Source: Amphiscolops sp. MND2022
Lineage: Eukaryota
Direction of reading: 5' to 3'
Assembly: GCA_964187785.1 (NCBI GenBank)
Contig: OZ076409.1
Coordinates: 68,140,001 to 68,204,000 of the forward strand
DNA length: 64,000 nucleotides
In this document: one piece after another, positions 1-36,847 of the stretch
How positions within the stretch are numbered: the stretch's first letter is position 1
How the letters are laid out: every line of letters begins with the position of its first letter
Program-made: the position numbers and the translations under genes
Notes under the pieces: model-generated
Told to the model about the DNA's origin: nothing
Database searches by the model: none
What the model saw: only the letters and a program-made list of their open reading frames with translations

Positions 1-2
1 AA

Positions 3-296
3 AATGACCAATGTCGTTACTGCAAAGAAGCAGGCCACATAGTAGCTGACTGTCCAAAGTTAGCTAAACGTCGCAAACTTGAAGAGGATCCAGATGCTGA
101 GAAATGCCAAAACTGCAACACACCTGGACACGAAGAAGAAGACTGCTATTTCGGTGCTAATATGGAAAATCGTCCACTGAAATGGAACCTGACAGAAGCA
201 CAAAAGAAGACCATAGAAGAATATAAACAAGCCAAAAAACCAATCAGACCAAAACTAGAACGATCTCAACAATCCTCATCGAAGGATTTAAACTAG
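3..296 (+). CDS. gag: Gag C-terminus (nucleocapsid) with two CX2CX4HX4C zinc knuckles, partial
   Basis: Frame 3 translation contains CRYCKEAGHIVADC and CQNCNTPGHEEEDC. Stop TAG at 294-296. Confidence 0.92.
   Translation, partial: NDQCRYCKEAGHIVADCPKLAKRRKLEEDPDAEKCQNCNTPGHEEEDCYFGANMENRPLKWNLTEAQKKTIEEYKQAKKPIRPKLERSQQSSSKDLN
287..293 (+). promoter_or_regulatory. -1 ribosomal frameshift slippery heptamer U_UUA_AAC
   Basis: TTTAAAC is phased X_XXY_YYZ in the gag frame immediately before the gag stop. The -1 frame is open from 290 into the pol ORF, which has no upstream ATG of its own. Confidence 0.85.
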
Positions 297-3200
297 AAAC
301 GCCACGCCTTTACACAAAACCACCACAAAAACCAAACTCATCTGATGACTGGCAGCATCAGTTGAGCCCAAAACTCACAAAAACAACACTCGTACAAACA
401 GAATCAAACACCCAAACTTCTCAACACTCAACGGATAACCACTCAGAAGACTTATACGAACTCTTATGTGATGCTCCAGACAACTACTTCACAAAACAAC
501 AAACCCATCCTGAAATTGACCCAGACTTCAATATTCACCACGATTCACCTATTAAAAATCATGTCACTATCAAAACTTCTTGCAATGATCAAAAACAACC
601 CCTTCTAATTGAAGACCTAGCTGAACACCTACAATTTGACAAAGAACGCAACTTGTCATACCTACCAATTTCAACATCCTTGACATTGAAGCGCAAACGA
701 CACATGTACTACATTCCAATGGACTTCCAAAACCTCACACTTGATGGTCTTATTGACACAGGAGCTCTCACAAGTGCAATCTCCGAACAAGACCTCAACA
801 AAATCAAATTGCTCGCAAACGATGCGATAAAAGAAACTGGTCCTCCACCAAACTTCCAAATTATGGTGGCAAATGGACAACTAGAAGTCCCCATTGGTAC
901 AGTATTACTAGAGTTCGAAGTCGCAGACTTCATGTTAAAGGAAAACTTCATCATCATGAAAACCCTACCAAACCCGCTCATCGGATTGTGTTTCCTTCGC
1001 CGAAACAATGCAATTTTCGATGTCACACAAGGAATCTTAACCTTTCCTTACCTCTCAATGCAACTGAAACCCGATACCCAAACAGCAATACGGCAAGCAA
1101 CACCATTGTTTGCAGAAAATACCTACACACTCAGGCCAGGCGAAACACTTGCTATAGCAAGCAAAATGCCTCACCTGATGGACCATAATGCAACCGGAAT
1201 AGTCACTCCATCACAACAATTTGAAAACCACGATAGTATTTTTATTACAGCATCACTTAGCACAGTTAATAATAATGCTATCGGCTACCAGATCATCAAT
1301 TTTTCAGAATTGCCATATACAATAACCATTGACACCCATTTAGCGGATTTCAAAATTCTGACCCCAGAACAAATCAAACACATCCAACCAGTAGACCCAG
1401 CAGTACTATCGTTTATGATACAACATGAAGAAACCATAGAAGTCTACATCAACGAACTCCTCAAAGTACCACAATCAACTCCTGAACAAGAATCGTACTG
1501 GTTCCCTACCCCAGAAGACCCAGGCGATCCCGCAACATACACTCAGATACAACAACGTATATATAACGAACTCCTCGAGTTAAAGGAACTTGAAAAACTC
1601 AACCCACATGACAATGAATCATCCAGGAAAACTTTCCTCTCAAATTTCGACTGGTCTGACACAACACTCAGCTCAGACGAACAACAAGAGATTGAAGAAA
1701 TTCTCGTCGAATTCCATGATATTTTCGCCAGACACCGTTTTGATATCGGTATAAACCGCGAATTCAAAGTGAAATTAACACCCAACGACGACAGACCAGC
1801 TTACAGCCAGAGTCTGCCAACTCCAATCAACCTCAAAGATGACATCACAGGAGAACTTGCGCTTCTACACAAGTACGGTATAATCACAACTCTACCGTTT
1901 TCCAAATATGCAAGCCCGATTTTTGCACAACGCAAACCAAACGGGCGCCTTAGACTCCTAGTCGACCTCCGGAAAATCAATAATCTTATCACTGAAGATT
2001 ACGCCAATAATAACCACCCGGTAAGCACCCTATCTGATGCAGCCCAACACATGGCAGGAAAAAAGCTTTTCTGCAAACTGGATTGCTCCCAGGCTTACCA
2101 CTGCCTCCAAATGGCCGACTACCAATCTATCCAGATGCTCGCGTTTAACTTTGCAAGCAGAACATTTGCTTATCGACGCCTTGCCCAGGGTCTCAGTCGA
2201 TCTCTCTCCGCATTTTCAAGCTTCATGAGAGAATACCTAGACAGAGCAATTAAAGCAGATCAATGTGCCCAAAATGTCGATGATATCGGCATAGCAGCAA
2301 ACGACACAAAACAATTGTGTATAAACATCAAAACTGTTTTTGAATGCATCCGGAATGCCGGACTGAAACTCTCCATGTCGAAATGTCCTTTCGGAGTTAA
2401 ACAAGTCGACTTTTTGGGACGCACAATCACACCAGATGGAGTTGCCCCTCAAGCCGACAAAGTGAAAGATTTTTTGGCAAAACTCAAATTCCCAAAATCG
2501 AAAAAGGCACTACAAAGGTATATCGGATTCTTGAATTATTACCGAAACTATATACCTTGCCTTTCAGAACGACTCACCCCGTTTTTCAAACTCCTCAAAG
2601 AAACCTCCAAATTTTATGTCCCTACAAACTTGGTCGAAGACTTTACAAACCTCAATCAACTTTTGGAAAATTCTTGCCAACTCGCGTTGAAACAACCCTT
2701 GAAAGATAAACAACTCATAGTCATGTCCGATGCAAGCTTCACAGCTGCAGGATATGCCATCATGATTGAAGACGATCCCAATCAGAAGCTTCAATCCAAA
2801 CGAAAAACCTACGCACCCATTGCGTTTGGATCAAAAACGTTCAATCCAACACAAACGAAAATGTCAATCTATGCAAAAGAATTCCTCTCAATATATTTTG
2901 CATTCGTAGAGTTTGGACACCTCATGTGGGGGAGTACCTTCCCTGTCATCGTGTTCACGGATAATCGGTCTGTAACCCGGTTTTTTCAAACGAAAATGAT
3001 TCCTCCAGCGCTTTGGAATGCATGCGATTATGTATTACAATACAATTTTGTAATCGCCCATGTAGCTGGATCGATGAACACAGCCGCCGATTTTTTATCT
3101 AGAACCGAAGTTAACCCAACCGGGAAGCTCGAAATGACAATTCGCAACGATATTCACACAAAAGCAATTGAAGTGAATATACAATCAACTGGAACTGTCG

Positions 3201-5179
3201 AAGAAGAACAAATTTACATCCTTCCTGATGAAGAAATTGATTAAAATCAACTTTGGGAAGAAAAACAAAACACTCGCAATCAAGCACAAAACGAAACTCA
3301 CAATGACCCAGAGAACGACGTCTCTGAATTACAGCAATTTCACAAACCTACATCCGGATTGATCTCCTGCTCCTCTGGACACTTCAAGGACAATGCGAGG
3401 ATACGCCTTGAACAGAACAATGACATAGTCCTTCGAAACCTGAGAGCCAAAATAGAAGGCGAACCGTTTGATGAAATTGAATTAGCTTCCGATTTCAGAT
3501 ATCAACACTACTTACAAAACATAACACGAATCGAGATTAAACACGAAGTTCTCACACGAAAATACTATACAGATACAGGAATGATCTCGCATTATCAAAT
3601 CCTCTTACCAATCCAACTTCTTGAAGAACTACTTCAAGCCCTCCATGGACATAACTCAAACCATCCAGGAATTACCAAGATGATTCAAGAAACACGTCAA
3701 AAATATTACTACCCATGTATGGCCAAATACATAAAGAAATGGGTCAGTAATTGTCAGATTTGTATACAAACAAAACGTATCAACAATGATCTCCTCAGAA
3801 CCGAACTCCTTAATTGTCCCGAATGGGACCTTGGACCGGAAGACATCTTACAGATGGATATTTTGCCAAACCTCCCCCCACGCGGAGGCTACGATCACAT
3901 CATCACAGCAATAGATGTCTTCTCAAGGTATTTGTTTGCCTATCCTGCGACTCGAATTACCGCAACAGCAGTTTCAAAAGTCATAATGGATATCCTATGC
4001 AAACACACCTACCTTCCAACAACTATAATCACGGATCTAGGCACTCAATTCAACGCACAAGTCACTCATGAAATTGCGGCAGTGCTTGGAATCGAAATGA
4101 AACATGCCACAATGAAACATGCACAAACCATAGGACTCTTAGAAAGAACACATGCCTCAGTTAAAACACACCTAAAAGCCGCCACAGGCGAATTCAGGAA
4201 CAACTGGCACAAATATCTTCCTCTAGCAGTCCTTAATCATAACACAACATACCATGCATCACTCGGTTGTGAACCCTCACGAGTTTTCCATGGCCGCATA
4301 CCACACAATATCCTTGACTACAAACTTGGATACAATCCAAATCCGAAGTATCAACCACAAACTGACATTGCAGAAGAAATTCAAAAGCGCATGAGAACAC
4401 TTTTAGACCAAACTAAAAAGAATATCATGCAATCTTACCTTAAATACAAGGCCTACTACGATAGAAAAGCAAAAGCAGCCCCGTTGGAGACAACAGATTA
4501 CTGCTATATTCTTAATCCAAAAGCCGATACACAAGCAACGAAAATACCATTCCGAGAATTCAGATGGTGTGGACCTTATAAAGTTGAAAAAGTGCTCCCT
4601 AACAATAACTACATTGTGAGGAGACTTGGCACAAATAAAACCCAACTACTACATCGGATTCGTTTGCGGAAATTCACACCGCAGGCCCCTTTAGCAGACA
4701 TTTTTGTTCGTGAAACCGACTGGCAAAAAGATGATCAAATGACTATAGCAAATGATGATCTATATGCCCAATCATGGAACACGAATTTTGGAGCAAATCC
4801 ATTTGATGACATTCCCTCAGATGCAATACACAATACTGAGGATACCGAATATGTCCCAATTCAAATACCCGACAATAGCCGCCCACCCTCCCCAGTATCT
4901 TCAAAAAATAGTGGGGGGAGCCCAGTGGATCAGACCACTGAACCAGATCAAAATCACGGAAATCATGCTGATGAAATTCCACAACAATCAAATGATGATG
5001 ATAACAATACCCAAAAAACCCAAAAAGATACAAATATTTCAACAGATGATGATACTCAAAAAACTCCAGAAAATTCCCAAAATACCCCATTGCAAGAAGA
5101 ACCCATAAATACTCGTGGTGAAAAATACAACTTACGTCCTAACCCCAACCCAAATTACTCCGACTCATATAGATATTAA
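290..5179 (+). pseudogene. pol: Gypsy Pol polyprotein (protease, RT, RNase H, integrase), with one in-frame stop and a mutated RT motif
   Basis: LIDTGA protease; RT motifs LVDLRKIN and KLDCSQAY, with NVDD (2273-2284) in place of YxDD; RNase H SDAS...KEFL...TDN...ADFLSR; integrase HHCC, D-D-E and GPY. ORFs 362..3244 and 3359..5179 are in the same frame, separated only by TAA at 3242-3244. Confidence 0.93.
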
Positions 5180-5364
5180 AACAAATACAGACAAACATCT
5201 CTTTTTATCTCCCCTTTTTCTTCAAATAAATATCAGGGAGTATGATGCTTTCTATCAACAACCCAATTTCTCTGTCGAAAGAATAAATACGTGACAGAAT
5301 TGGGGAATAAACAAAGCAGAGAACGAAAAGTAAACAGTAATCAACCATATACTACAATCAACAA

Positions 5365-8300
5365 TCAGTTTTTCTTTGACTTCACAATCTTGGACTTAGT
5401 CTTCTTGGACGCATCTTCAACTGAAGAACTAGAGCAACGATTCAGTGACACACTAATCCTGCTAAGACTAGGGTCAGGAGACGGGGAACTGTTTACACTT
5501 CCAGCTCTACTGACACTCGGAGTTGTTGAGGTAGATGAGACAGTAGGTTTTTCATGCTGTAAAACTGCCTTGCGATATCCAGTTTCAAACTTCCCCAGCA
5601 AAGCTGCTCTTCGCACTCCACTTCCCTTCATGAAGTTCCAAATGGAAAATTTTCTATCAGCCAATAGATCGGCCCCTCGACCCAAGAGACGGAAAACCCG
5701 ACTTATTGATTTGGGATCCCGATAAAGGCTGGAAACATGAGGAATGGAGTTGTAAGACATCTGGAGGCTTTTGACGCAAGATTGAAAACTCTCCTCGTCA
5801 GACGCTAAACCTTCCATCGGAACGATAAATGGTGGAGGCACTTCGATTCGTGGAGGCAAGCATAGGCTCGAGAATTTAAACAATTGAAATAATTCTGGTC
5901 GGCTTTGAAGCTCGTAGTTGGAAGCCAGAAACTGAATCCAATCATCGTACTCAGGGGGGTCATCAGAACGAAGTTTAGCCGCAAGTGATCGGTACTGACT
6001 AACGACCTTCACCTTAAAGCTTGAGAAAATCAAATTAGTAGTGACAAAGTGACTTGTCAGTCTCTCAATAGCAGTAGTGTAATTAATTTCGGGTCCGACG
6101 AGGAGGACAGCGGGATCAAAGGCTGACAGTCCTTTGACAAGTTTGGATTTGAGATTTTCATGTCTCAGCAACTGTTTGCAGAACGATTTGCCAAAGCTAG
6201 TGGACTGTTCTACAAATTTACTGGGACGAGGAAGTTTACTAGCTGCAACCAATTTGTGAAAATCTTCGTTAAGAACATAATCGTCTGGTGCTTTGTAGGG
6301 CAAGTCTGTCCGATCCAGGTCCAGTTGTAGAAAATTATCCCAATCAGATATACTCCCAAGCGAAGTATCAGGCAAGATACTTTGGAGCTGACTGTAAATG
6401 AAAATAGCAAACTGGCTGAAAGCACGGAATCCACCATCTACACTTTTCTGGACTTCGGAGAAGGCTGAAGTATCTGAAACACACCAAAAGTTACAATAGT
6501 ATTGCTTCTACCTAGCAGGAATGTACTAAGAATAAGCTGAAGAAGAAATCGTCATCATAAAAACACGTGCATAATTATCACGGTGAAAGGTAATTCTCTG
6601 ATGCTAAGCTGCACGATTATACGTTATTACACGAAACAAAGATAATAACTATACGTTATTATGCGGAACAAAGCATAGTGATTATACGTCACTATGCGGA
6701 ATGACCTATGGTGATTATACGTCACTATGCGGAATGACCTATGGTGATTATACGTTACTATGCGGAAAAGATACAAATGGTGATTATACGCCACTATACT
6801 GAATGAGATATATTGATTATACGTGATCATGCGTTTCAAGGAGTAGTGACTATACGTCAATATACAAAAACAGCAGAGTAACTGTTTGGGTTATTCTGAC
6901 TGAACGGGACTAGACATACGCATTAATGCGGATTGAAGAATGATGATTACTCATGAATATACGAGAAAAAAACAAAAGTACGCGATATTGTGGATTTTGG
7001 GATTTGAATTCCTGGAACAAGAGAGTACACGTGTACAAAACTACGAAGACAGAAAACGACACAACAAAAGGAAAGTATATAAAACGTGGTAACTAACAAT
7101 GGTCAAGAACACAACGAATGACGAAAAGGCGGGCTAAGTAGGCCGTGTCGAGGCGGGAACATTCATCCAGTGTGTTTGGCTATAACAGAAAGTACCATTG
7201 AGCAAAGAGAAATGCGTTGAGTTTTTATACAATACCTAGTTAACAAACAAATAACCTCTCGCATATGGAACCGGTATACAGGGAGTCTTGCCACCTGATT
7301 AAGGTGATCAACCACATGATCCCAGTTGTTGGATAACAGCTCAATAATCAAAGAGGCATCTTGAAGGGAGTACTCCAGACGGATCACAATCTAAAAAGAA
7401 GATGGGTACTACATAAAAAAGGATTACAGCACCAAATCAGAAATTACCAGGTATGCTAATTACCTCATGTAGCAGTGGTAATTTCTTCAACCAATCGCGG
7501 TCGAGGGCAGTTCTCAGCTTCATCAAGAGATAATCGAGTATAGTCCGAAAATCATGGCGCTCAATAATCTGTGTAGTCGGGACAGCTAGGCTCCTTTCGA
7601 GTTCTTCCGGTCCAAAGGTGTTGATAACGGAGATGTGTTGGTTTCCCGGGAGGCAATTTGACAGGCAATCACCTAATTTATCACCAAAGTCAATCAAGGC
7701 GGTACAAATTGGGGCTTCTTCGAAAAGACTGATAAACGACGAAATTATAGACAACGTTTTCCTTGGCAGTAGCATCCCACGAGGAGCATTTCCTAGGCAA
7801 ACGTGATGGAGTACGTTGCCAGACCAGAATTTAAGGATCAGGAACGTGTTGGTGGGTGTGTGCTGTAAAGCGAGAGAATAGTGTCCGGAAGCTGTTATTG
7901 CAGTTGCACAATATCCGATCAGTTTCCGAAACATGTAGACGAAGGTGCCCTGTATAACAAACAAAGTACACTATTAATTTATAGTAAATGCATTTTCCTT
8001 CAAAAGGTAACTTTCTGAAAGGTTACTCTGTTTTCAATCGAGGAGTGGATGTTATCAATCAAAAAAAATAATACTAACGAAAAGTCGCTGTTGACTCCAA
8101 TTTAGTTCACACGCCCCGTCGCTAGAAGTCAGTCGTGACAGCTCACCATAAATTCCGATTAAGCTTTTAACATGACCACCATGTCGGAGTCCGTGTTCAA
8201 GAATACAGATTTGCGAAAGGACCTTATCCGTCGGGTTGGTAACCGTATTGAAATTGGGGATGGTATCCTGTCCCACAAGGGGATGGCATGAGTCTAGTTG

Positions 8301-9759
8301 AGGTGCGATTGGGTAGTTATTCTTGGCCTTTTTCTTGGCTTCTTGAAGTTGAATCCCATACATTTCCCTGCCTTCTTTGTCGAAAAGCGCCATACCAGGT
8401 ATCTCCATTCGCATCCGATGTTCCTTCACTAGATGTGTTTCGGACTTGTAGTGAGATAATAATTCAAGGCTGCCTCTGCTCATGAGAGAAAGTTCAACCC
8501 GACAAACCCGACACCACCACTTATGGGGAGTCTTGTCTCTGTCGATTGGACCAGTGGCAGAAAATTTCAAAAATGGATGTTTTCTAAGCATTGCTCCCGT
8601 AAGAGAATATCGTGGTCGTCGACGTTTCCCACTAGCTATGACGTGCTCTTCCTGTAGTTCATCAGAATGAGCCCTGGCTTGGTCGTGGGATATCACTTCC
8701 TCTTGACTAGACGTTCCAACCATAGGGGCAGTCTCCATATCATCCACAATCGTTAGTGTCAGCGGTTGCTCGGGTCCGGTCTCGTCTCCAAGAACATACT
8801 CAGGTGGAATCCGCCCAAGGAAACTGCTTATTGTGAGAATTTCTCTCTTGGTAACGCTGATGTTCCCATGACCCGCCCCTGGCACAATGACGCCACTGAA
8901 TCCAACCTGTTCAGATGGAAACATCATGGGTAATGCACTAGAATGTGGCACATTTTGATCTGCCCTGTGAGTTACTGCAGTCGGTTGAGAAGGCCCAGCA
9001 ATTTGTGAAGAGTATGGATCAGTATGTGAGGAAAGTGTTTGCGGGGGTTCCTGATCAATGAATTCATCCACTATTTCACGACTGATGTTGGAAAAGGATC
9101 CCTCCATACCTTCCGTTGAAGTAACTTCTGACTCAGGATTAACTGGTGGTGGGGTAGGATTCCCTTCCTCTACAAGCTCTTGAGACGTATTCGGGGTTGC
9201 TGACTGCTGAATAGAGATGTCATTCGACGTTTCTTTCTCTATACTGATCTCCTCGCGGATTTGGAGCGGAGCAGTAATTGGTGAACTGTTCGTATCGGGG
9301 ACAGCGGAGCTCTTGGGGGAAGATGTCAACAAAGGTGTATAAACCTTACCTGGAGAATGGGATGTCGATAATTCATTGGTCTTTGGTTCGACTGAAACAA
9401 ATAAATTCTTTACCAAAATGAAACTGAGCGAGTGGCAATCGGTTTATGCTGACTGAACTCGGACGCGGGGACAGGAAATGAAAGAAAACCGGATGCTACT
9501 TAGAAATTAGAAACGGAAACGTTTCGAAAAAACTCGAAATTGGTCTGCGAAAACACGGATCACTTTCATTTATTGAGTCTGGCCAACTCAATAGAACGAA
9601 TTTCCTCTAAATCAACTAAACCGAATCATGTTGAAAGTTGAACTTACCAGAATCAGCCCAAAATGAAGGATTGTAGTCTCTTCCTCCAAAGTATTGCGGT
9701 GATTGTCCTTTCCTCGTTCTCCTTTTCCCCGGGGAACTTCCCTCCTGTTGTTCCTCCAT
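5365..9759 (-). CDS. Six-exon antisense gene (~1078 aa): disordered N-terminus, BED-type zinc finger, hAT-transposase-like body
   Basis: Exons 9759-9648, 9391-8079, 7949-7464, 7390-7256, 7179-7098 and 6473-5365 join through five GT-AG introns with matching phases (1,0,0,0,1) into 3237 nt with no internal stop. Zinc finger WCRVC...HYKSETH at 8433-8519. An extra donor (GTAAGG) at 9349 may add another intron. Confidence 0.8.
6615..6965 (+). repeat. Array 1 of 32-36 bp units, core TATACG-N4-TATGCG (8 clear units, 2 degenerate)
   Basis: Cores start at 6618, 6650, 6683, 6716, 6749, 6785, 6818 and 6851. The array lies inside intron 5 (6474-7097) of the antisense gene. Confidence 0.9.
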
Positions 9760-10117
9760 CCAAAAGATGCGAAGAGTATGTAATTAACGATGAATAATTA
9801 AAGAGTAGAATGTCTGATAAAGAGTATCAACTAAACGAATCTAGAAATAAATCTGAAACTGGGACAGATAAAAAGAATGTTTTGATCTGTAACGTGTTAG
9901 ACAAAATACTGACGTACTATTTTCACTTTATTGACTGTTCAAACGAAAGACACAATGCAAAAGGCGTGGCGTAACAAGGCAAAGAAGCAAATGAAACGAG
10001 CTTTGAGCAAATATACCAAAAGAATACTGCAATCTGATTGGCTAATTAAATGTCAATCACTTCTGTCAGAGTGATTGACTGACTCATCATAAAGCTACCA
10101 ACAATTCACTGTATGAG

Positions 10118-10266
10118 AGTATGTGGCAGTATGCGGAATTGCAACAATGATTATACGGTGGTATACGAAATTGCAATGAAGACTATGCGGCAGCATGCGG
10201 AATTGCAGATGATGGTTATGCGGCAGTATGCGGATTGAGTGGTGACGTATACTCAGCACCCTGCGG
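10118..10266 (+). repeat. Array 2 of 32-33 bp units, core TATRCG-N4-TATRCG (about 5 units)
   Basis: Cores at 10120, 10152, 10184, 10217 and ~10250, between the divergent antisense gene (ATG 9759) and the sense ORF (ATG 11060). Confidence 0.8.
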
Positions 10267-11059
10267 TTTACGCTGCATACATTTAAAGGAACGGATTAAT
10301 ATTACTAATGCTTGGAATTGAGTGAAAAGACAATATTACGTAATACTGTGATGTAATTACGACTTGCAAATGTAAATCACGTGTGATTTCATTGATGTTT
10401 AGCCAAATACCAGTGCAATTTTGAACCAAATACATGTATAACAGCTTAGTCTGGTGACGCTTTTCAAACCTTTAAATGAAGTTACTGGTAGTGATGAAAT
10501 TCATGTATTAGATCATAAACTACATTTATATCCTTTAAAATGCAAGACAAGAATCGACTGATGTTTTCTTTAAAAGTCATATGACCTATGGAAGTAAAAT
10601 AGGAAACGCTTCCTAGCTTTCCCTATTTTTTACAAACAGTCATGTAGTTTGAATAAATTTGATTTTAGTTTGTTTTATTGAATATTGCCATGAAGAGTTT
10701 TATTTCATTTTCACTCACATCAAATTGAATTTGTTTACGAATCGTTAAAAGTAGGTTGAATGCTGTGAAGGATGATGATCAAGGGAAATCAGTTGAAGTG
10801 CTTAACATCACACCTTTTATGGAAAATGTCTATGATAAATTGTGGATGATGCTTGTGATATGAATCTAGACAGGAACCCATATAAGGTGGTGTAAGAACC
10901 TAAAACCATGACACTCAACTTTTCCGCGGGTTTTCCGCCGAAAACGAAAGGTATAAAAGAATCCATCACCATATGGTCTATAACAATCTGAAATTCAGTT
11001 GCTATTAATATCAAAATTTTGCTTTAATTCGTCTGATTTTAAATACAAATCAAAAGAAA

Positions 11060-12115
11060 ATGAACCCACTGCAATTTAACCTGGACGAAGATTTGGGCTA
11101 CTCGCCTATTTCACCTGATGTCATCGACATCTCCAGTGGTTCTGGGGACGAGTTCGTGGTAGAAGCTGGCAACATCCCCCAGTTGGACGAGAAATTCAGG
11201 ATCAACACGATGGGGACAAACATGATGACTGCTTTCATGGGTGCAGCAACAGCGTCACTACTTCCCAACACCGACCATGTTGACCAATCAGGATCTATAG
11301 ATACGGCTGGAACTCGTATCGAGAGGGACATTATGGATCTGATAGAAGAGGGCCCTTCCTCCTCTCCTGAATCTCCGCTGTCTTTCATAGATTCGCAATT
11401 TGAAGGGATTGGAATGTCCCCTGTTAATGTTAGTGCTGAACCCAGGATCCAACTGAACAGCTATGGGCGTCCAGTCGCAGCAATATTGCCTACACCAAGA
11501 GCCACAATACAACAACCGAATGAGATCGCCAGGCCAGTGCCCACTTACCCCCCAAATTTTTCACGTGAAACACATGATTCACACCAACTTCGAGCAATTA
11601 ATTCAGACGCTCAAGAAACTGTAAACCTGCCGATTCATCAACCAGAAGGGGTTTACCCTCAAGCAACTTTTGTCCCAGAGGGAATAACGTACCCGGCCAT
11701 CAATGACATCACACCAGTAGTGATACATCTACCCCCTAGAAACATGGGAATTCCTCAAGTCAACTTCAACGATCAATTTCAACAAGTAGTCCAAGCAGGT
11801 TTCCCGTTCAATGTTCTACACAGCACCAACATCCTACTGATGCCGACTAATGAACGACAGAATTTCAGACTGTTCCCAACGGTCATGCCCAACGTCTCTG
11901 GGTATTGCGATTGGTGTGGACGCACCTTTGATCAAGTGGCTCTAGAAACGTTGGGTGACTATCTTGGGGCGACAGCTTATAATGAAGAAACAGTAAGGGA
12001 CCGTGGAGTCAGATCCAGAGCCTTCATAGACGGATTTGAAGCTGCGTTGTTTATCTTCAAGAACGCGGGACTGTCGCGTCCCCAAAGGTGCGATGGGTCC
12101 GGTGTGCATCTTTAA
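11060..12115 (+). CDS. 351-aa orphan accessory ORF: acidic/Pro/Gln-rich N-terminus, C-terminal CxxC domain
   Basis: Uninterrupted ATG-to-TAA ORF in AT-rich surroundings, with YCDWCG followed by a helical-looking C-terminus. No family recognised. Confidence 0.65.
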   Translation: MNPLQFNLDEDLGYSPISPDVIDISSGSGDEFVVEAGNIPQLDEKFRINTMGTNMMTAFMGAATASLLPNTDHVDQSGSIDTAGTRIERDIMDLIEEGPSSSPESPLSFIDSQFEGIGMSPVNVSAEPRIQLNSYGRPVAAILPTPRATIQQPNEIARPVPTYPPNFSRETHDSHQLRAINSDAQETVNLPIHQPEGVYPQATFVPEGITYPAINDITPVVIHLPPRNMGIPQVNFNDQFQQVVQAGFPFNVLHSTNILLMPTNERQNFRLFPTVMPNVSGYCDWCGRTFDQVALETLGDYLGATAYNEETVRDRGVRSRAFIDGFEAALFIFKNAGLSRPQRCDGSGVHL

Positions 12116-12344
12116 GAAGATAAACAACGCCTACAATGTTGTGTCAAACTCTAAAAACTCATCCACTAGTCATGTAACTTGTGTAAATATATTACTTCTA
12201 ATCAGGGTCTCTTAATTGTTTTACTTTGTAAAAGTAACATCTTGATGTACTTTGGGCAACTCCAAAAGCCTTAATGATGATTTTATTAGTTCAAATAACA
12301 CATGTGCAGTGCTACTAATTTCATTCTGAACGAATGGTATTAAT

Positions 12345-12595
12345 TGGATACGTCATCATGCGATATGATTACTATTATTATGCATCACTGCGCGCAGTTG
12401 TAACTCTCAGTATACGTCATTATGTGTTTCAACCATTAATGAGTATACGTCACTATACGTATTTGTGACTTTCATTATGCGTCATTATGCGGTTTATGCA
12501 GTGATGAATATACGTCAGTATACATATTTTCTCATCCAAATTTATATGCGTCATCCCACGGTTCAAGGAGTAGCGAGTACTCGGCATTGTGCGTT
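12345..12595 (+). repeat. Array 3 of 32-36 bp units, core TATRCGTCA-N-TATRCG (8 units)
   Basis: Cores at 12347, 12379, 12411, 12444, 12476, 12509, 12545 and 12578. Shares the 12-mer TTCAAGGAGTAG (12562-12573) with array 1 (6835-6846). Confidence 0.88.
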
Positions 12596-12734
12596 TCTCG
12601 CTATGTTCCTTTTAATTTGAAGGATTAACTTTATGCTTCCATATATAGTGTTAAAAGTCCATAAAATATCGTTGTTTAATACCTTTCTAGGGTCTTTTAG
12701 ACAGCGGAATCGTTTCTGTATGTCATGATATGAT

Positions 12735-12752
12735 GACTCATAGTATATAAAT
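12735..12752 (+). promoter_or_regulatory. Candidate LTR core promoter (TGACTCA site plus TATATAAATA box)
   Basis: Both motifs lie ~300 bp upstream of the gag-like ATG at 13044 and just downstream of array 3. Function is inferred. Confidence 0.4.
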
Positions 12753-13043
12753 AGAATGACGACATTCTGACGAGGCGCTATTATTAGGTTTTCCCGGAAA
12801 TGATGCTAGTAAAATTGCGTGTCATCCTTTTGTAATTTTTGGATTTTCTTTAGAAATAGAAGGAGCTAACACAATTTGAATTACTTTCCTCAAGTCCAGT
12901 CCGTTTTTACTGGACCATAAAGCAATCATTGTAAATCATCTTCATATTTGGACTTCCTAAACAACACAGTCTATTTTCATACAAACTTTCATCTCAAATT
13001 CAAATTCTTGACCCTGCAAATCGATCGTTTTCACTTGAGAAAG

Positions 13044-13620
13044 ATGGGGAATAAGAGAAACAGGAGATCTAGAAGGCTAGAAACACCGTCTCCAGACAGA
13101 AACCCAATTGAGGCACAAGTAGATACGTCAACTCAAGGTAATGAGACTTTGACTAATTTTAACTCAGTTTTACAGGAGAATTTAGGTGAAAACGTCTCAG
13201 AAAACCCAATGGTTGAACCAAGCCAAATTAGTAACGAAATCCAAGCTTGGACCCAGATTATAGAACAAAAGAATAATGATAGAATCGAGAGAATGAGAGA
13301 AGAAATAGACAACAAGTTTGAAGCAATTCTGAAAGAAATCAAGTCAAACAAAAGTGCATCGACAGTAACAAACCCAAGATCAGAGCTTAATGAAAATCAG
13401 GAACCCCAAGCGTCGGGGTCTAAAACTAACAAGTCTACAGGAGTTCACGCATCTTTAAACGAAAATTCAGATTCAGAAAATGAAGATCATCCTCTAAGAG
13501 CTTCTAAAATGAAAGACTTGAGACATCCTGCTAAGCCTATGTTTCGGGATGAATCAGATGTAGATGTAACAATACACTCAGACGAAGAATCTGATGCAGA
13601 GTCCTTAGAGGATTATCACA
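13044..13620 (+). CDS. Gag-like N-terminal ORF truncated at the element end
   Basis: Basic start MGNKRNRRSRR, coiled coil (IQAWTQIIEQKNNDRIERMREEIDNKFEAILKEIK) and acidic tail. The frame runs to ...DYH at TATCACA and stops 14 nt later in apparent flanking DNA. Confidence 0.55.
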
Positions 13621-14474: not shown

Positions 14475-17400
14475 TTTTTTCTATGGTGCCGCGACTAATG
14501 TGACGTTCCCTTTGGACCTTTTTAGCAGTTTGGAGCTGTCGTCCTCTGAAGTTTCGTCATCTACACTAACCCGGTGAGCCTGTTCCAAAAAAGCACGCTT
14601 CACGTGCGAAGGTTTTTTTGTTAGTGCAATTTGAGAAACCATGGTTCGGTTCAAGTGAAAAAAGTCATTATGTCGAAAAAACTGCTTCGAAGCCGGAACA
14701 TACTAAAAGACGAGCTCGAAGAGGCACAAGAAAGGCTCTTGTCCTATGTCAGGAGGGTTGGACGTTACGTTACGTTGAAAAACAATTGAAAACATGCAAA
14801 GAAATACTTTCAGAGACTGATGAGAAAATCCTTCAACTAATTGAAAGCGCTGAGCACTAATCCGAAAACGAACTATATCCGCAGTGGATTAGCAAAACTA
14901 GCGAAGAAAATGATGCATTTTGTGCTCAGGTTAGAAAATACTTGAAGCAGGGAAAATCACCCAGTGATACGCTCAGCAGCATAGTTAGAAAGTCAACAAA
15001 TTCCACAGCATCGTCTGAAAAACTCCGACTTGAAGCTAGCTTACGTCCACAAGAACTAGAACGACGAGCCGAAGAGAACTTTTGTCTTGCTAAAGCAACA
15101 ACTGACTCAGAGTTGATGCAATTGGAAGAAAAAAACCGACGGCAAGTAGCAGATGCAAAAATTCTTGAAGAGCTTTTCGACGAAACTATTTCTAAGAAGA
15201 AATCGAGTAGTACGTCATACGAATCGTCTACTCAGCGAACTGAAAAATGGGTAACTGAAGTTGCAGAAACATGTTTTCAACAACCAAGGATTGATACCGA
15301 AAGCAATCCAATCGTCACCGAAGCTGTTCATGTGAACGCTAACTCAGTCCCGGAAGATGTTCATAGAGTACGATCAGTTCTAATTAGTCAACCATTCTCC
15401 GTTGCTACGCAGTCTCAAGGTACTTTGCTTGATTTGGAACGGATCCAACTACACAAGGAATCCCACTTCGACTCTCAAGCGAATTCATTTCACGTTCAGA
15501 AACCCATCTCACTATTTGACGAAGCCCTCTCCAACGTGTCTCTTACAAAGAACAGTTTCAGCAGAATTACAGGAAACGAGTCTCTCGAAAACAACCAAAA
15601 GTCAACTCCATCACGTCAGCATACATCAATACGCGATAACAATGTTGACGACAGTCCCCAGACAAATGTCAGCGTAAGACCTGTCATCCACGAAAATCTT
15701 TGACTGCAGACTAACATACCAGAAAAGGTTGAAATCTTCAATCAGCAACCGACCAAAAGACCACCAACCGCTGTTCCAGAACCTCCCGCAACGCGTAATA
15801 CAGTTGAAGAAATTGTAGCAAGAAATCATGTTCATAACGTTTGGCCCTCAAAGGAGCTACCGAAGCATATAAACGTGTGCACCTCTCCTTCTTATAGCAA
15901 TTGTCAGCCGGTCTCTCAAAACGACATTGATCAACCGTCAAAAACAACTTGTGTTTCAAACCTGTTTGTGGCCCAACAGCCAATCCTATACAACACTTCT
16001 CATCAACATTTAGCCGCCTATCATTCCTTCCGACAAGAATCTGATCAGCCAATGGCTTACCAACCGTTAGGTTCTCATCAACCAGCCCTTGATATTCTGA
16101 CTTTCAACTCGAAACTTTCAGTTCCTTACCGACAAGAAGCTGATTGTATTTACCAAACCGCCCATCAGACACCAGTTGCACACCGTACACCGTCTAGTAA
16201 AGGAAGAACATCGCTCAAGCACCCATGCTAACAGTCACAACTCATGTGGTAACCCTACTACCATCTATCAACGCCCAGCTGTTTCTTACCGACCAGGAAC
16301 AGACAACCCCCACACGGTGCCGACAACTTAGCCGAACTTCTCGCTTTTGACAAGCGGGATCCATTGTCCGAATGGAAGTTAAGTTGCTTCGATGGAAACC
16401 CTGTGGATTGGCTCGAATGATTTGGCCAATTCAAAAGTGTCATCGATTTTTCTCACCTCTCCAACGATGTCAAATCAACCTAACTGAAAACGTAAGTTTC
16501 GGGGAAAGCTAAAGCCGCTATTCCATATTCGCCTACTGTGGAACAATGTACGAAGAAGCACTTCGAACCTTGCCACGGAAGTTTGGACAACCACAGGCAG
16601 TTGTGTCAGCATACTTGGAGAGACTTTCGAAATACCCGCTCGTGAAAACACATTCTTCGGAAAGCATCATAGACTTCGCTACAACGATGGGAAGTCTTGT
16701 TGGTGTTTTCAAATCTGTTGGATACGAAGCCAATTTGAACAGCACCAGCGTTTTGAATCAAGCTGAACTTCTGCCCAACCTCAAAGAAGCATGGTTATTG
16801 TTCACTGTCAAACAGTCTCTAGAGCGACCGTCACTTCAAGAGTTCAACACATGGCTTCAGCAAAAGGTCGAAGCGCATGATCGCATGCAGACTGTTCACT
16901 CTCAGTCATCGTCGTCGCCAATCTACAGCAAGCAGCCGAGCCAATTACCCCAGCAGCCGAAGATCAAATTCACCAAACGTTTCTCGTCATCCGCAAAAGA
17001 AAAAAAGAAAACAGCGAATATCACAAAAACATCTGTCCATGTGTTCAGGAGCTCATTTGCTGTATCGCTGCAGCAAATTCCGCAACCAAACTACAAACGA
17101 ACGCATCAGGTTCGCGGTTGAGAAAAATTTGTGTTTCTCATGTCTACAAGGAACGCATTCATTCCGCCAATGCCCTACAAAATACTCATGTCTAAAACAA
17201 GGATGCAAAAGCTCTCACAGTGTTTTGCTTCATGGGGCGGAACGCGTGTTCTCAAAGTCATCATCATCAGTACCACAGCTTCAAAACACAGCCGAATCTT
17301 CATCAAAGAACTCTACAATCGCAGCCGCAATAACTTGTAAAAATCTTCTGCAGTTAGCAGAGGTAAACATTGCGTATAAGGGTAGAACTCGAAGAGTCCT

Positions 17401-20400
17401 TGCGATGCTGGATTCTGGAAGTACCCATACTTGGATCGCCGAAAACATTGCCGAAGAACTTGGTCTGCCCGGAGAAGAGCAGAGCATTCGACTTTTCGGC
17501 ATCAACAACGAAAAGGACTCACCACCAAAACGCGTAGCTTTCAACGTCACCGCAGCACATCATAGTAACATACAACATTCCTCACATGAAGTCTACGCTT
17601 ACACAAAAGCCAACCTTAGCATTGGTAAGGTTTCATAAAAAGTCACATCCTTGAAGAAGACATATCAACAGCTAAACCTTTGCCAAACGTCGTCGTCAAC
17701 TACCAAGACGTTGTCCTACGTCTTGATCAAGATCCCTACGAGTGCATCCAACCACTTGAATACAGAGTCGGTCAGCCCAACCAACCTATCGCAGTGCGCA
17801 CAGCCCTTGGATGGGTCCTTGTGGTCATGTGTCCAATCAAGCTTTGAAAGAATGTTCCACCTTTAAAGTTGTCGCCACTAAGATCAACACCTAGCCAACC
17901 AGGTTCAACATTGGAGGGAACTAGAGTCATATGGTTCCAGCAAAACTGGTGACCCACAATCATTGGAAGATCAAAATGCCTTGAAGATTTTGGAAGCTAC
18001 AACATATCACGATGGAAGCTGCTTTGTCGTGGGAAAGTTGTGGTCTTCTGAAGCGTCCTCTTTGCCGATCAATTATTACTACGCCTTAGCACAGCTTCGA
18101 GCTTTGGAGAAACGCCTTGACCGGGACCCAGCACTGAAAGAAAGATATGCCAGCATAATCAAAGAAGACATACAGAAAGAATACGTGATAGAAGTACCAT
18201 CTGCAGAAATTTTTGGAACGTCTCTTCGTCAATGGTATTCACCCAACCAACCAGTACAACACCCGCTCAAACCGGACAATGTTCGTAGAGTACTAAATGG
18301 AGCGGTAAAGTTCTGCGATGTAACGCTAAACTCAACCCTTCTTTGTGGACCTGTTCTTCTTCAAAATTTGCTACAATTTTTTGTTAAGGTTTCGACAACA
18401 CCAATATGCCGTCTCAGCTGACATAGAGGAATTGTTTCTTCAAGAGGGTGTACCAGAAAAAAACCAACTGTCTTTACGATTCCTCTGGAGAGATACTCCT
18501 TCAAAAGTAATCAAAGTCTACCAGTACACACGTCACCTCTTTGGTGCAAAAGACAACCCAACTTGGACCAACTACGCCACGAACAGAACGGGCGTAGACA
18601 ATGCAGCCAAGTTTCCTGAATCAGCTCTCGCTGTGAAACAAAATTTCCACATGGATGACTACTTAGATTCGCGTCCAACTTTGAGTCACTAGAGAATGAT
18701 CTCATCCAACTCCTTTCAAATGGGGGCTTCAAGCTAATAATCAGCAATGCCCCACTGCTAGCAGACCGCCTCAACACTTTCGCCTATTCACATCACAACC
18801 GACAAACAAAATTGTCTTCTGCCAGCTCGATACAAAACAATTTAGGAAAACCCCAACAAACACGATTTCATCCCCACGACAGAGAACCAGCGAATCCACA
18901 CAACTTGGATCCTCTAAAGTATCTCATCCCAGTCCGAGATAACAAACTACTAGACCTAGTGCATTGAAAGTTAACGCAATGGAAAACATAATACCAGTAA
19001 AAAAAGATGTCATTTGGAGACGCAGTCCACACTTCACCGTCAGAAGCTGCACATGCCACGTGTCCCGAGTCTTCAAAAATCAAGCAATGCGAGGATTGTC
19101 CAAGTTTTGCCTCAATAGCATCACCTGGAACTCCAGCAAACCCATCCGTGCTTGGTTTCCGTTGGAATACCGATCAAGACACCCTGATTGTTAGTCGTGG
19201 AACTACTCCAGACTTGATCGGGAAGACAATTACGCAGCGACTTGTTCTTAGTACCGTATCTTCAGTTTTTGATTCCATCCGGACTAATTGCTCCGTTCGC
19301 CATAAGAGCCCTTCTACTCTTGAAACAACTCTGGAAGAGCACCGGTCAACAATGGGACGAAAAAAATCCCGAAGATTCACAATCAAAGTTCCTGGAATGG
19401 TGTTCTGAACTTGAGAACGTATCAAAAATTGCAGTACCTAGAGTCTTTTCCAGAAGCCGAACTGGCTGTACGAGCTTCATGTTTCTGGCGATGCGTCAGT
19501 TGAAGCCATCGCCGCATGCGCCTACCTTCGACAGCCAGACGGTAGGGCAGATAAAAGAAGCCAAACAGCTTTCATAATTGGAAAAATCCCAGTGGCCCCA
19601 ATGAAACTGCTAACTATTCCCAAACTTCAAGCCGCTTTGCTCGCATCACGTTTGAAACGTTTCGTCGAAGATTCACTAGTTATACCCATCAACAAAGTCA
19701 ATCTGTGGACCGACAGTACCACTGTTTGCCAATGCATTACAAAATCTGCTTCAAAACAACCAATTTTCATCACTAATCGCCTTTCAGAGATTCTAGAGCT
19801 CACAGCAATGGATCAATGGAAGTTTGTTCCTAGTAGCCTCAACCCTGCTGACTGTTCTACAGGGGTTTCCCTGCAAACTGTCGCATATCCCAACTCTCAG
19901 TTCCAAGCAAAATATGACCCATCTTCAGCGAAAACATGTTTGAAAGAATCAGAAGAAGAAAACGAAGAAGAAGAAAAAGAAGAAGAAGAAAGCCGACAAT
20001 CAGCAGCTACAATATCCAGACAAATAGTTTCCGCAGCCCTTCAATATAATTTTAGGCCACAAGTGATTCCTTCGAATCGTTTCAGCAACAACAATAAACT
20101 ACTACGAGTTTTTGCATACAATTTGTGCCTTCTCCAAAGTCATTTTGTGTTAAGACAAACTACTAAAATTTCACACCCTGAAGAATACCTAACTTCATTC
20201 TTTCTCTGAAGGAATCTTTTGCCGAAGAACTCAAACACCTACGGAGGAATCAAAATCTTCCGAGTCACTCGCCACGCGGAAACTACCCTTTGGCCCGGGT
20301 GTGCGAGGTTTACTCTGACAGCAAGGGAGTTGCAAGATCTGCCAAAATTATGACCAGGGAGGCAGTTTTGATGCGCCCTGTCAATAAATTGGCCAGATTG

Positions 20401-20429
20401 TGGAACGTCAACAACGCTACCCCCAAAGA

Positions 20430-20727
20430 CGTTAAAAGTGACTACCAAAATTCGCATGAATGAAAACTCATGAATGAAAACTCATCAATGGAAATTAGTG
20501 ACTTGAAACTCGAAATTGCTAAAAAAATTTCTTTAAACTGTTAAAAACCTTCTGATGTCTCTAAAATTTGATGGAATTCTTTTGTTACTCCGTTTTTCCT
20601 CTCACAGCAATGAAAACTGACCTAGATTTCAGAGACGAGTCAAACTACGTTGTGCTTTTTTGTTTGTTCCCTCAGACATCTGGGCCATTTCGGTAACCGG
20701 CCGTCAACTTGAATTAGCGAAACAGCA
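20430..20727 (+). repeat. BEL-1 3' LTR
   Basis: (C)GTTAAAAGTGAC...AACAGCA, homologous to 14168-14474. Confidence 0.85.
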
Positions 20728-23700
20728 TTTATACTTAGCATAGTGGATCAGTCTTTGCCATCGAACTGGTCTGCGCGAGTCCGAATCTGCGACACCGCTT
20801 CTTTTTGATTTGTTTGTTCCTGTATTACTGAACTGTGATATTGATCAATTATTTAAACTGACACTTAATCTTGTTTTCTCATTTATAACATTTAACGACC
20901 GTTGCTCTTTGTGTATACGTACAAATCTGTAAACAACGTGCATAGACTTTTTTGTTGTCCCCTCGGCTGTAAATGCCTAGTTTGCTAGTTACGAACCAGC
21001 TGATAACCAGTCCCCCATTCCTCAATTCCTTGATCATGTATCTTTCATTCATACCGTCGATAAACGTAATCAAACACAGGCCTCTCACTTTGAGGCAAGA
21101 TTCTTTTCTTTAGTCCGAATTTTCTATTGAATTCCCTCACTGTAGCTTGAGAGCTGGCCTGGAACATTGGTGACTTCGTCAACAGCAGATGGTTCAAGTG
21201 GTTCAGACGGTTCTGGTGCTGTGTTGAAGCTTTATCAGTTGGATTCATCGCGGCGAGCTCACTATACGGTTAACAGCAATCCAGCAAGCCGGTGGACTAC
21301 TCGAGGATGTCCAAGTAGAGTTGGAATTCCTAAATTATTGTCGCGATATGCTGTCTGAGTTGGATGCTCAGATACATTTCATTTAAGACGCGACGACATA
21401 GAGGTCGACGTGGAGGATGGTACTGGTGTGTTCTTGGCAGCAGAAAAAGAAGTGAAGTGAAGTCAGGGCATTATCAAAAGTTGCAGCCTCCAAGCACACA
21501 CAGAGCAGCGGCTCCAGCAAGTGGCAGTCTGGCCACAAAGCTCTCTAAGCTGACCCTTCCTTCATTCACTGGTGAATACACACAGTGGGTGTTTTTCTGG
21601 GACCACTTTTAACACTGGTTGACAGCAAAGTTCACATGGCCAACGGTGAGAAGCTATGGTACATCAAGGTTTCACTGAAGGGTGATGCAGCTCAGATAGT
21701 TTCTTCCCTGTTGGTCACTGGTGCAAACTACAACAAAGCGAAGCAAAAATTAGAAAGGAGCTTCAACAACAAGTGTTCAATTTTAAAGGCGCACTTAGCT
21801 GAAATTCATGCCCGACCAGTTGTAAAGAAGGAGTCAAATGTCGAGCTGCAGAAGATGCTGGAATCGACAAATGAACTTTTGGAAGAACTAGAAACTGTTG
21901 CCTGTCAATGGCCTTTTCGTGGCACTTGCAACGGGGGGCTTCATACTTCATTGCACTCTGAACGTCCGGCCGATCAGCAAAGTGGTGTGACGAGTTGGGC
22001 AACATTCGGTAGTCTTTATGTGCTTCTGTCAACAGCAATGGTTGGCATAGATGATACAGCTGGAAAAACACTGTTGTTTTGTGCCTCGCTGGATTCTGGG
22101 ACCCAAAACGTCCTTCATCACATTGGATGCTGCATCAAATCTCAACCTTGTTCGTTCAACAGTCGATGTGAAGATCTCTGAAACTGGTGAACAGCAACAA
22201 GTCGCAAAGGAAGGCTTCAAAAGTTGCCGGTTTCAGCACTTGTTCTGAAATCAATCGCCGGTAATGTTCCTTCTACGTCCTTCATGTTGAAACAATTGGA
22301 GACAATAAGAAGTGTAGCACTAGCAGACAAAAACTTTATTGAGACTGGCGCCGTTCAATTGTTTCTGGGACCGGATGCTTACGAGGATCTCAACGAGAGG
22401 AAGAAGGATCATGGGTTGCACTATTGCAATCTATCTTAGGCTGGGTCGTGACTGAAGTGATGTCCCATACGCGTGGCTGTCGATATCAACCCTTCCAAGT
22501 TGCAGTGTGGAACTGGACCTTGCTCGAGTCTGGGTAGTAGACGAGATTTCTCGAAAGAAGTCGATATTCAAAAAAATTGTCAGTGTGTGGAACATTACGA
22601 CACTACAACCTATGTTGCAGATGACGACAGCATCCCAGTTCGTCTCCCTTTATTTTTTGAGGTACGTCCCTCAACACAGAAAACAGCCAAGAAGAGATTC
22701 TTCGCTTTGGAACAAAAACTCAAGGATCGCAAGTTTGAGAAGCGGCAGTATCATGACTTCATCGAAAAATATTTGGATATGGGTCATCTGCAAGAAGCTC
22801 CTCAGACTTCAGGCTTACGTTACTACGTACCCCACTGTCAATACAAACCTTTGTGTCTAAATGTGTCTCTCAAACTCAGTCGATGTATCAACAACAGAAT
22901 TCATTCACGTACCGTCAGAGGAGATGGGGTTGCCAGTCGATCTGTGCTCACGTGAATAGCTAGCAATGGCTCAGCAGAAGTTCTACTTAAAATGACCATC
23001 GTGGTTAGGATCATCGTTTCCTGACCATTTTCACACTCCCCTCACAAACGAGGAAACCCGACAAGAAGTCAAATCCTTGATTTCAATTCAGCGTTCGAGA
23101 AAACTTTCGAGGCGATCTTTGGTCGGGAGGAAATGGCTTTCGCCTTCTATGCGATGGTCGAAGCAGATCATGTGGTGCACTTTGAAGCCGAGTTCCGAGC
23201 CCTCCGAAATGGTGAGTCCATCAACCCGAAGAACCCATTCATGGAAAACGGCGTCATCAGTGTCGGTGGCAGATTGATCCACTCAATGACTGAGGTACCC
23301 TTCACTGGTGTTGCACCGAAGCAAACAGACAACACCTGCAATCCACGATGCCCACAAGCGAAACCTTCATGTTGGTTCCACAGAAACCGTGGAAGAAATG
23401 AGACTTCCAATCTGGGTCACACTCTCAAGGAGAAGGCGTCAGCGTGCATCAAGAAGTGTGTCACGTGCTTCCGCTTCACTTCAGGTTCAACGCATCAGCT
23501 CATGGGTGACTTGCTGAGGCTCCCGAACCTGCTCTCTATTGTGTAGACCTTGACTTCGCCGGACCTCTAACTTTGAAAAAGGCAACTCAATGTTTCAAGG
23601 GTAACAAGGCTGTTTTTGTGTTTTTAATCCAAGGCTAATCATCTAGAGGCAGTTTCGTCACTGTTATAAGATGCAAGGGTTGCAGCGCTGAGACGATGCA

Positions 23701-36562: not shown

Positions 36563-36806
36563 TGTTGAGACTTTCTAAATTACTATGACACGTCACTTAA
36601 AAATGCTTCAAATTTAAATCAATCAATCAGAAACTGACAACCATGCAAGTCATGCGTGAAAACTTTGACTTTTAACTTCATTGTATCTTTCTTCATTTCT
36701 TGTTCACAAATCAATTGAATCAAGTTGTACTTCTTTTAAACTGATCATAATTGTTTAATCTCATCACGTAAGAATTGAACTTTCTTTTCTTATTCATCCA
36801 GCAACA
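36563..36806 (+). repeat. BEL-3 5' LTR
   Basis: TGTTGAGAC...CAGCAACA. Confidence 0.95.
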
Positions 36807-36847
36807 TATTGGTGCCGCGCCTACCCAGGAAAGGAAAACGTTTAAAA

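Follow-up and report, generated by a model that had tools for sequence, protein, structure and literature searches.

The closest known systems to the locus described here are the Retand/Grande elements and the VANDAL/VANC system of plants. VANDAL elements are Mutator-like DNA transposons, and their VANC proteins remove DNA methylation and diversify with their targets, which are short motifs that form part of tandem repeats within introns, intergenic sequence, and non-coding terminal sequence (PMC5735166). The BED domains of Hermes, a hAT transposase, bind short repeats cooperatively (PMC10368747), and transposase-derived regulators without catalysis have been documented in plants, including Spm TnpA and FAR1/MUSTANG (bioRxiv 10.64898/2026.08.24.746577). 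In planarians, Burro elements are large, many-copy Gypsy elements with accessory coding sequence and tandem repeats (PMC6431247, PMC11410931). In the present study, 64,000 nt of the Amphiscolops sp. MND2022 contig OZ076409.1 (assembly GCA_964187785.1, positions 68,140,001 to 68,204,000 of the forward strand), here called the window and numbered from its first base, were analysed to follow up a preliminary description. A Ty3/Gypsy long terminal repeat (LTR) retrotransposon in the window has about 7.5 kb between pol and the 3′ LTR, and this region holds two accessory genes, an antisense gene of six predicted exons that resembles hAT transposases and a sense gene (ORF-C), together with three arrays of a short, doubled motif.

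Retand, Grande, and Tat are plant Gypsy elements (PMC11963269, PMC7264820), whereas BEL/Pao elements and spliceosomal introns in the window indicate an animal host. In comparison with the available descriptions of these elements, the antisense gene here has five predicted introns, is hAT-like, and encodes a C2H2 finger, there is a second, sense gene, and three dispersed homologous arrays have conserved cores. The Retand lineage is marked by a plant host, the Retand reverse transcriptase clade, and a TRP28 antisense open reading frame (ORF); Pfam TRP28 (PF04195) matched neither the window nor the accessory proteins. The preliminary description had likened the locus to VANC. In common with VANDAL/VANC there is an element-encoded accessory protein, with motif arrays in intron, intergenic, and terminal sites and array turnover between relatives (PMC5735166), and to this extent the likeness holds. 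A methylation role is unsupported, no methylation signature having been seen. The locus also differs in that the carrier is a retrotransposon, the finger is near-invariant where VANC diversifies, and no homology to VANC was found.

As in Hermes-type hAT proteins, an N-terminal C2H2 finger appears to precede an RNase H-like and helical body, and there are short repeats that several fingers could bind cooperatively (PMC10368747). In contrast to hAT elements, no terminal inverted repeat (TIR) with target duplication was found, the arrays are internal, direct, and regular, and the catalytic motifs appear lost; the H-x5-H spacing of the finger and its lack of a Pfam zf-BED match also differ from the BED finger of hAT transposases. 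Spm TnpA and FAR1/MUSTANG are transposases that retained DNA binding and lost catalysis, as is proposed here; those proteins serve the DNA transposon family they came from or the host, whereas the beneficiary proposed here is a class I element, and the whole words 'retrotransposon' and 'Gypsy' are absent from the main text of that preprint. Most of the extras of Burro (BIR, BCL2-like, MATH, env) lie inside the polyprotein or upstream of it, and the available text of PMC6431247 does not mention an antisense or transposase-derived gene. The literature covered, which took in few subscription papers and not Repbase, yielded no animal Gypsy element in which a hAT-derived gene with introns accompanies matching arrays; related cases could be in the supplements of PMC11963269 and of the preprint.

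The three arrays, reported previously in a single orientation, were recovered both by Tandem Repeats Finder (6615-6824, period 33; 10113-10234, period 32; 12398-12529, period 65) and by a matrix scan, which identified 20 clear units (8, 4, and 8), every one on the + strand. Taking the first T of the first hexamer as the unit start, and excluding from the final counts the decayed units at approximately 6884, 6915, 6948, and 10250, the arrays are as follows.

6614..6965, + strand: array 1, eight clear units (6618-6866) and then a decayed tail; unit starts 6618, 6650, 6683, 6716, 6749, 6785, 6818, 6851
10116..10265, + strand: array 2, four clear units, between the divergent accessory genes; unit starts 10120, 10152, 10184, 10217
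12343..12593, + strand: array 3, eight units; unit starts 12347, 12379, 12411, 12444, 12476, 12509, 12545, 12578

As first described, one array is in an intron (array 1, in predicted intron 5, of 624 nt), one is intergenic (array 2, between the 5′ ends of the divergent accessory genes), and one precedes a TATA-like word (array 3, about 150 bp upstream of 12744). The reported spacing also stands: the 17 distances between units are 32 bp (six), 33 bp (nine), and 36 bp (two, one each in arrays 1 and 3). Since 6 of the 17 are 32 bp, coding repeats are ruled out.

The core was originally given as TATRCG-N4-TATRCG. Paired hexamers 10 bp apart are indeed present, however the N4 is not free, its third base being A in 19 of 20 units, and the strict pattern is matched exactly by just 8 of 20. 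The form TATRCGNNANTATRCG (TATRCG-NNAN-TATRCG) is fitted with no more than one mismatch by 16 of the 20 units and by nothing else in the 64 kb; in 100 shuffles the same search gave a mean of 0.09 matches and never more than 1. Because of the A in the N4 and a second A two bases before the first hexamer (17/20), the unit is best written as a 10-bp word, xxAxTATRCG, present twice and followed by a free spacer of 12-16 nt. The conservation profiles of the two half-words agree (Spearman 0.71, permutation p=0.013). Helical phasing, also claimed previously, applies within the unit, where the 10-bp half-site distance is fixed; successive units are rotated by 17, 51, or 154 degrees (at 10.5 bp per turn), phasing between them is loose, and the half-site spacing is the only fixed distance.

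The arrays are homologous, because a matrix trained on two of them ranks the units of the third near the top of the window. With the matrix from arrays 1 and 3, the array 2 units rank 1, 2, 4, and 7 of 127,944 positions, and when array 3 was the one left out, seven of its eight units were in the top 20 and the eighth was at 225; these ranking runs included two misregistered tail units of array 1, without which the column statistics were computed. Separately, a dispersed host repeat with a CGGCAYTRTGMG core (45273, 55928-56371, 59421, 61505, and 61632) resembles the last unit of array 3, and two of its copies contain a single xxAxTATRCG word (45277, 61636).

It had been claimed that the cores are kept while the intervening sequence varies, and this is the case: between arrays, hexamer identity is 0.78 and spacer identity is 0.34. 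When gaps are allowed, spacers are 0.424 identical against 0.408 after shuffling. The cores therefore look constrained, with hexamers 78% identical between arrays and spacers at the shuffled level. The core-spacer contrast of 0.32 compares with 0.12 +/- 0.04 under neutrality and was reached in 0/600 and 0/600 simulations run along random trees of matching mean identity. With a column-variance statistic, which is less specific, p was 0.047 and 0.008. Some spacers are nonetheless closely related, being identical at 6683 and 6716 and sharing 12 of 13 bases at 6818 and 12545, and the latter match suggests that arrays 1 and 3 have recently exchanged sequence.

The protein most likely to bind the arrays, if any element-encoded protein does, is that of the antisense gene, for which six predicted exons with GT-AG joins in phase give 1078 codons without a stop. 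The accessory genes have the following parts.

9648..9759, - strand: exon 1, predicted start, with ATG, GTAAGT donor, and fitting phase; no homologue among the proteins compared; the least certain exon
8079..9391, - strand: exon 2, with a variable low-complexity N-terminal part, a nuclear localization signal (NLS)-like motif, and the finger; 92 clusters
about 8613-8627, - strand: basic NLS-like motif, within exon 2
about 8433-8513, - strand: C-x2-C-x16-H-x5-H finger, within exon 2
7464..7949, - strand: exon 3, predicted, RNase H-like region; 54-71% identical in relatives; look-alikes in the atlas are DUF4371 and FAM200-ZBED5 RNase-like
7256..7390, - strand: exon 4, predicted; match to relative P0482, E 1e-5
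7098..7179, - strand: exon 5, predicted; homologous peptide just upstream of exon 6 in three relatives
6474..7097, - strand: intron 5, 624 nt, GT-AG, in phase, containing array 1
5365..6473, - strand: exon 6, C-terminal part; 101 clusters at 90% identity
11060..12115, + strand: ORF-C, intronless accessory gene, 351 aa; 97 clusters

In three more distant relatives, exon 5 is joined to exon 6 over approximately 69-126 nt, which supports the exon model and indicates that array 1 is lineage-specific; a usable exon-5 match was present in 3 of the 18 relatives examined. The finger residues C, C, H, and H are kept in 75, 75, 75, and 76 of the 76 sequences aligned (the window's own and 75 of the 92 hits), and the residues inside the finger and the basic motif preceding it are likewise near-invariant, while the N-terminus diverges freely. 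A finger this constant across subfamilies predicts one motif common to the whole family.

The preliminary description supposed that the binder was the element's own BED/hAT-like protein. A hAT-transposase-like gene with a C2H2 finger is indeed the neighbour of the arrays, however the finger does not match Pfam zf-BED. The finger and exon-3 region of a relative resembles hAT-type atlas clusters at 0.86-0.93 (DUF4371, FAM200-ZBED5, ZBED1 RNase-like, DUF659). The exon-6 model aligns to Hermes 368-605 over 170 residues (Z 4.6, rmsd 9.1), a weak match although the longest alignment; in the atlas, exon 6 had nothing above 0.80. The finger-region model gave short helical matches only, with weak structural matches to TUT4 (Z 4.5). 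Profile searches of the Protein Data Bank (PDB) returned nothing meaningful, Foldseek nothing at E<=0.001, and the exon-6 profile no related loci in the metagenome or viral contigs searched. Reading by eye against the DDE triad, CxxH, and RW expected of an active hAT transposase, the first D, CxxH, and W appear lost; when mapped by such a motif, the candidate catalytic E is E in 35/61 sequences, and Q occupies the first-D position in each of three subfamilies. With moderate confidence, the protein is hAT-derived and probably inactive as a nuclease. No hAT TIRs with an 8-bp target duplication were found around the gene, where 5180-5365 compared with 9760-12750 gave one T-rich 11-bp inverted match without duplication, nor was there any inverted match of at least 25 bp.

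The N-terminus of ORF-C varies, and its C-terminal 100 aa, in which a CxxC is invariant, are conserved. No Pfam family matched either accessory protein, and the two are not homologous to one another; ORF-C too is a candidate binder or cofactor.

Clustered at 90% identity, exon 2, exon 6, and ORF-C form 92, 101, and 97 clusters, all of unnamed ENA proteins; judged from these sequences, each gene part has some 100 subfamilies that travel with integrase and LTR. Co-occurrence was scored per contig from at most 15 members of each cluster, contigs being recognized by their length, and the same contig need not mean the same element. The exon-2 and exon-6 clusters of this subfamily sit on the same 12 contigs, and in two other subfamilies exon 2 is paired with ORF-C on 12/12 and 11/12 contigs. 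Among the matches listed, an accessory gene is on 7 of 14 LTR-ORF contigs, and exon 2 is on 5 of 13 integrase contigs where approximately 0.4 would be expected (by arithmetic from 2 collisions in 9,614 pairs). A one-off nested insertion is ruled out by this co-occurrence of the cassette with LTR and integrase on other contigs. A location within the LTR is also ruled out, and the accessory genes are internal to the element, because just 3 of 287 cluster-contig entries are true same-contig duplicates. On shared contigs, identity to this copy is 76-99% for pol, 67-73% for the finger domain, 45-53% for exon 2, and 40-53% for ORF-C; on one, the integrase is 98.9% identical and exon 2 just 50%. This suggests that the accessory cassette evolves fast or is swapped.

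The carrier is assigned to Ty3/Gypsy on the basis of gag followed by protease, reverse transcriptase, RNase H, and integrase (PR-RT-RH-IN) in bases 1-5179, with Pfam matches to zf-CCHC (5.4e-7), RVT_1 (8e-19), RT_RNaseH (4e-14), Integrase_H2C2 (3e-15), and rve (6e-10). For this reason the arrays are not the subterminal repeats of a mobile hAT element, to which the preliminary description had referred by analogy. The remaining parts of the element are these.

3..293, + strand: 3′ end of gag with CCHC zinc knuckle (Pfam zf-CCHC); the element starts 5′ of the window
227..5179, + strand: Ty3/Gypsy pol (Pfam, ORFs), interrupted in this copy by an in-frame stop at 3242-3244
12734..12799, + strand: putative LTR core promoter, with AP-1-like, TATA-like (12744), and STAT-like (12791) words, consensus matches only
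13044..13620, + strand: 3′ part of the 3′ LTR, encoding the gag leader and ending in CA at 13620

The LTR end is placed at 13620 because it is precisely here that sequences related to the ORF at 13044 part from one another, whereas gag fusions run on. The LTR encodes a gag leader of approximately 190 codons; in 5′ LTRs, this leader continues past the LTR end into gag (P0395, P0399). The LTR start was not found, and array 3 is either in U3 of the 3′ LTR or just 5′ of it; no clear polypurine tract was found in the window, and the 5′ end of the element is outside it. Perfect STAT-like words (TTCCNGGAA) occur 3′ of arrays 1 and 3, at 7009-7017 and 12791-12799, each near a TATA-like word (7076, 12744), and there is a single other such site in the remaining 50 kb.

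The cores contain CpG, and a role in countering methylation had been envisaged. The observed/expected ratio of CpG stands at 0.94 for the window and at 0.84 for gag-pol, and private transitions among close copies affect 6/1698 CpG and 19/9835 other C/G positions (odds 1.8, p=0.25; the events are few and may include read errors). An anti-methylation role is therefore unsupported, as the host has neither CpG depletion nor clear CpG hypermutability.

It is proposed, with a probability of roughly 0.45, that a sequence-specific DNA-binding protein uses the arrays as operator-like platforms to regulate the promoters of the element, the likeliest candidate being the antisense hAT-transposase-derived protein of the element itself. 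An ancestral Gypsy element would have captured an intron-containing hAT gene in antisense, an orientation in which the introns survive reverse transcription. The protein would have retained its zinc finger and probably an oligomerizing scaffold, catalysis having been lost. By analogy with Hermes, the two 10-bp words may be recognized by pairs of fingers from one face of the helix, with the oligomer spanning several units. Occupied arrays close to the LTR promoter and to the divergent promoters of the accessory genes could keep the element transcribed or set its level, the protein acting in trans on all related copies, and units may have spread between sites through duplication and exchange, as the shared spacer indicates. 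Splicing of the antisense gene, binding, and the direction of the effect we infer from the sequence.

Operator function is supported by the constraint on the cores, a gene intact over six exons, a near-invariant finger, the hAT-like features of the protein, and the co-travel of the cassette, and it has precedents in the cooperative binding of Hermes BED domains and in the plant regulators derived from transposases. In sequence collections the double-unit pattern was matched in eight metagenome contigs and one viral contig, eight of the nine being simple 10-bp repeats, and none of the nine was homologous to the element by tblastx. On one unrelated metagenome contig (L008), a Dimer_Tnp_hAT fragment at 519-806 (+; E 3.8e-5) is followed, 450 bp 3′ of it, by two TATACG-NNAN-TATGCG units 34 bp apart at 1260-1309 (-). 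These units, which contain the same word, may be genuine subterminal repeats of a hAT element; as 1 of 8 hits recognized post hoc, they count weakly for the operator proposal.

Several points weigh against it. The exon-6 profile fails to align with the hAT fragment of L008 (probability 0.4). Neither zf-BED nor a hAT family was matched in Pfam searches of the window and relatives (zf-BED also among the 76 members), and unrelated helical folds reach the same Z of 4.6 as Hermes. The units are not strictly in phase. In relatives P0449, P0468, and P0482, which have the same gene, intron 5 is of approximately 69-126 nt and has no space for an array. The units were selected by their cores and the simulation was without indels, both of which tend to raise the core-spacer contrast.

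The alternative that survives best, although itself unlikely, sees the arrays as enhancers, in which sites for a host transcription factor (BED-type or bZIP) form homotypic clusters selected for cell-appropriate expression, with the accessory proteins doing something else. Core conservation is accounted for equally well by this. Three array 1 units and six array 3 units have in-register cAMP-response element (CRE) half-sites (TGACG, - strand), the arrays are flanked by AP-1-, STAT-, and TATA-like words, and the xxAxTATRCG word is present in the dispersed host repeat. However, array 2 retains the double word without an in-register CRE half-site, the single word is found just four times in the 50 kb outside the element and is never paired, and the element itself carries a strongly conserved candidate binder.

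It is improbable that the arrays are neutral minisatellites, or relics of captured hAT subterminal repeats, spread by slippage and template switching and now functionless. Tandem arrays are frequent in long pol-3′LTR regions, with function unknown according to the available text of PMC11963269, recent duplications are visible here (6683/6716 and 6818/12545), the intron array is lineage-specific, and the array ends are decayed. Against neutrality, between-array spacers are saturated and cores are not, the half-words vary at the same positions (p=0.013), and none of the 1200 simulations reached the contrast.

Action of the motif in genomic RNA, as repeated accessory-protein sites for export, packaging, or splicing control in the manner of Rev/Rex, is decidedly improbable. 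All 20 units are in genomic RNA orientation while the neighbouring genes face both ways. H-x5-H spacing is also found in RNA-binding matrin-type fingers, and the TUT4 matches are the only structural matches for the finger region. Array 1 folds better than shuffles (z -3.7), however arrays 2 and 3 fold like them (z -0.24 and 0.06), and the fixed 10-bp spacing suits duplex DNA. A conserved RNA hairpin was rejected: the 5-bp candidate lacks covariation and is 63% paired against 64.7% after shuffling.

Nucleosome positioning or exclusion without a specific binder is very improbable. Within the unit, TA steps are 10 bp apart with CG approximately 5 bp, or half a turn, later, as is typical of strong nucleosome-positioning sequences, and array 2 is about one nucleosome in length; however, exact bases rather than dinucleotide classes are kept, and the phase is lost within 147 bp because the 32-33-bp period drifts from the nucleosomal pitch by 1-2 bp per unit. 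That the protein is still a (partly) active transposase or recombinase which moves or swaps the accessory cassette by way of the arrays is hardly to be expected: the cassettes do appear swapped, yet a search around the gene gave no TIR with target duplication, the likely catalytic positions appear unconserved, and template switching in reverse transcription explains the swaps.

Elsewhere in the window there are two BEL/Pao LTR retrotransposons, one largely continuous (36779-41990, DUF1759 and reverse transcriptase by Pfam) and one fragmented (14861-22181, judged from translations alone). A sulfotransferase-like host ORF at 47042-47782 (-) matches Gal-3-0_sulfotr at E 2e-5, under the curated cut-off. 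Further tandem repeats at 34303-35028 (305-bp), 57442-57899 (26-bp, inverted arrangement), and 59738-60182 (16-bp) are probably ends of non-autonomous DNA transposons. No Rfam match and no tRNA were found.

The arrays are a real and apparently constrained feature in a large retrotransposon family, and their link to an element-encoded protein is plausible. One element here contains both a candidate binder, whose finger is small and near-invariant, and a precisely delimited candidate site, the doubled 10-bp word. More doubtful is the proposal in full, in which a catalytically dead, intron-bearing hAT protein, domesticated by an animal LTR retrotransposon family, would bind three element-borne operator arrays and activate or shield the element, probably against silencing other than by DNA methylation; this would be a class II-derived regulator serving a class I element, kept across approximately 100 subfamilies and cassette-swapped. 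If true, transposon-encoded sequence-specific regulators would extend from plant DNA transposons to animal retrotransposons, and a transposase would have been domesticated by another mobile element instead of by the host.

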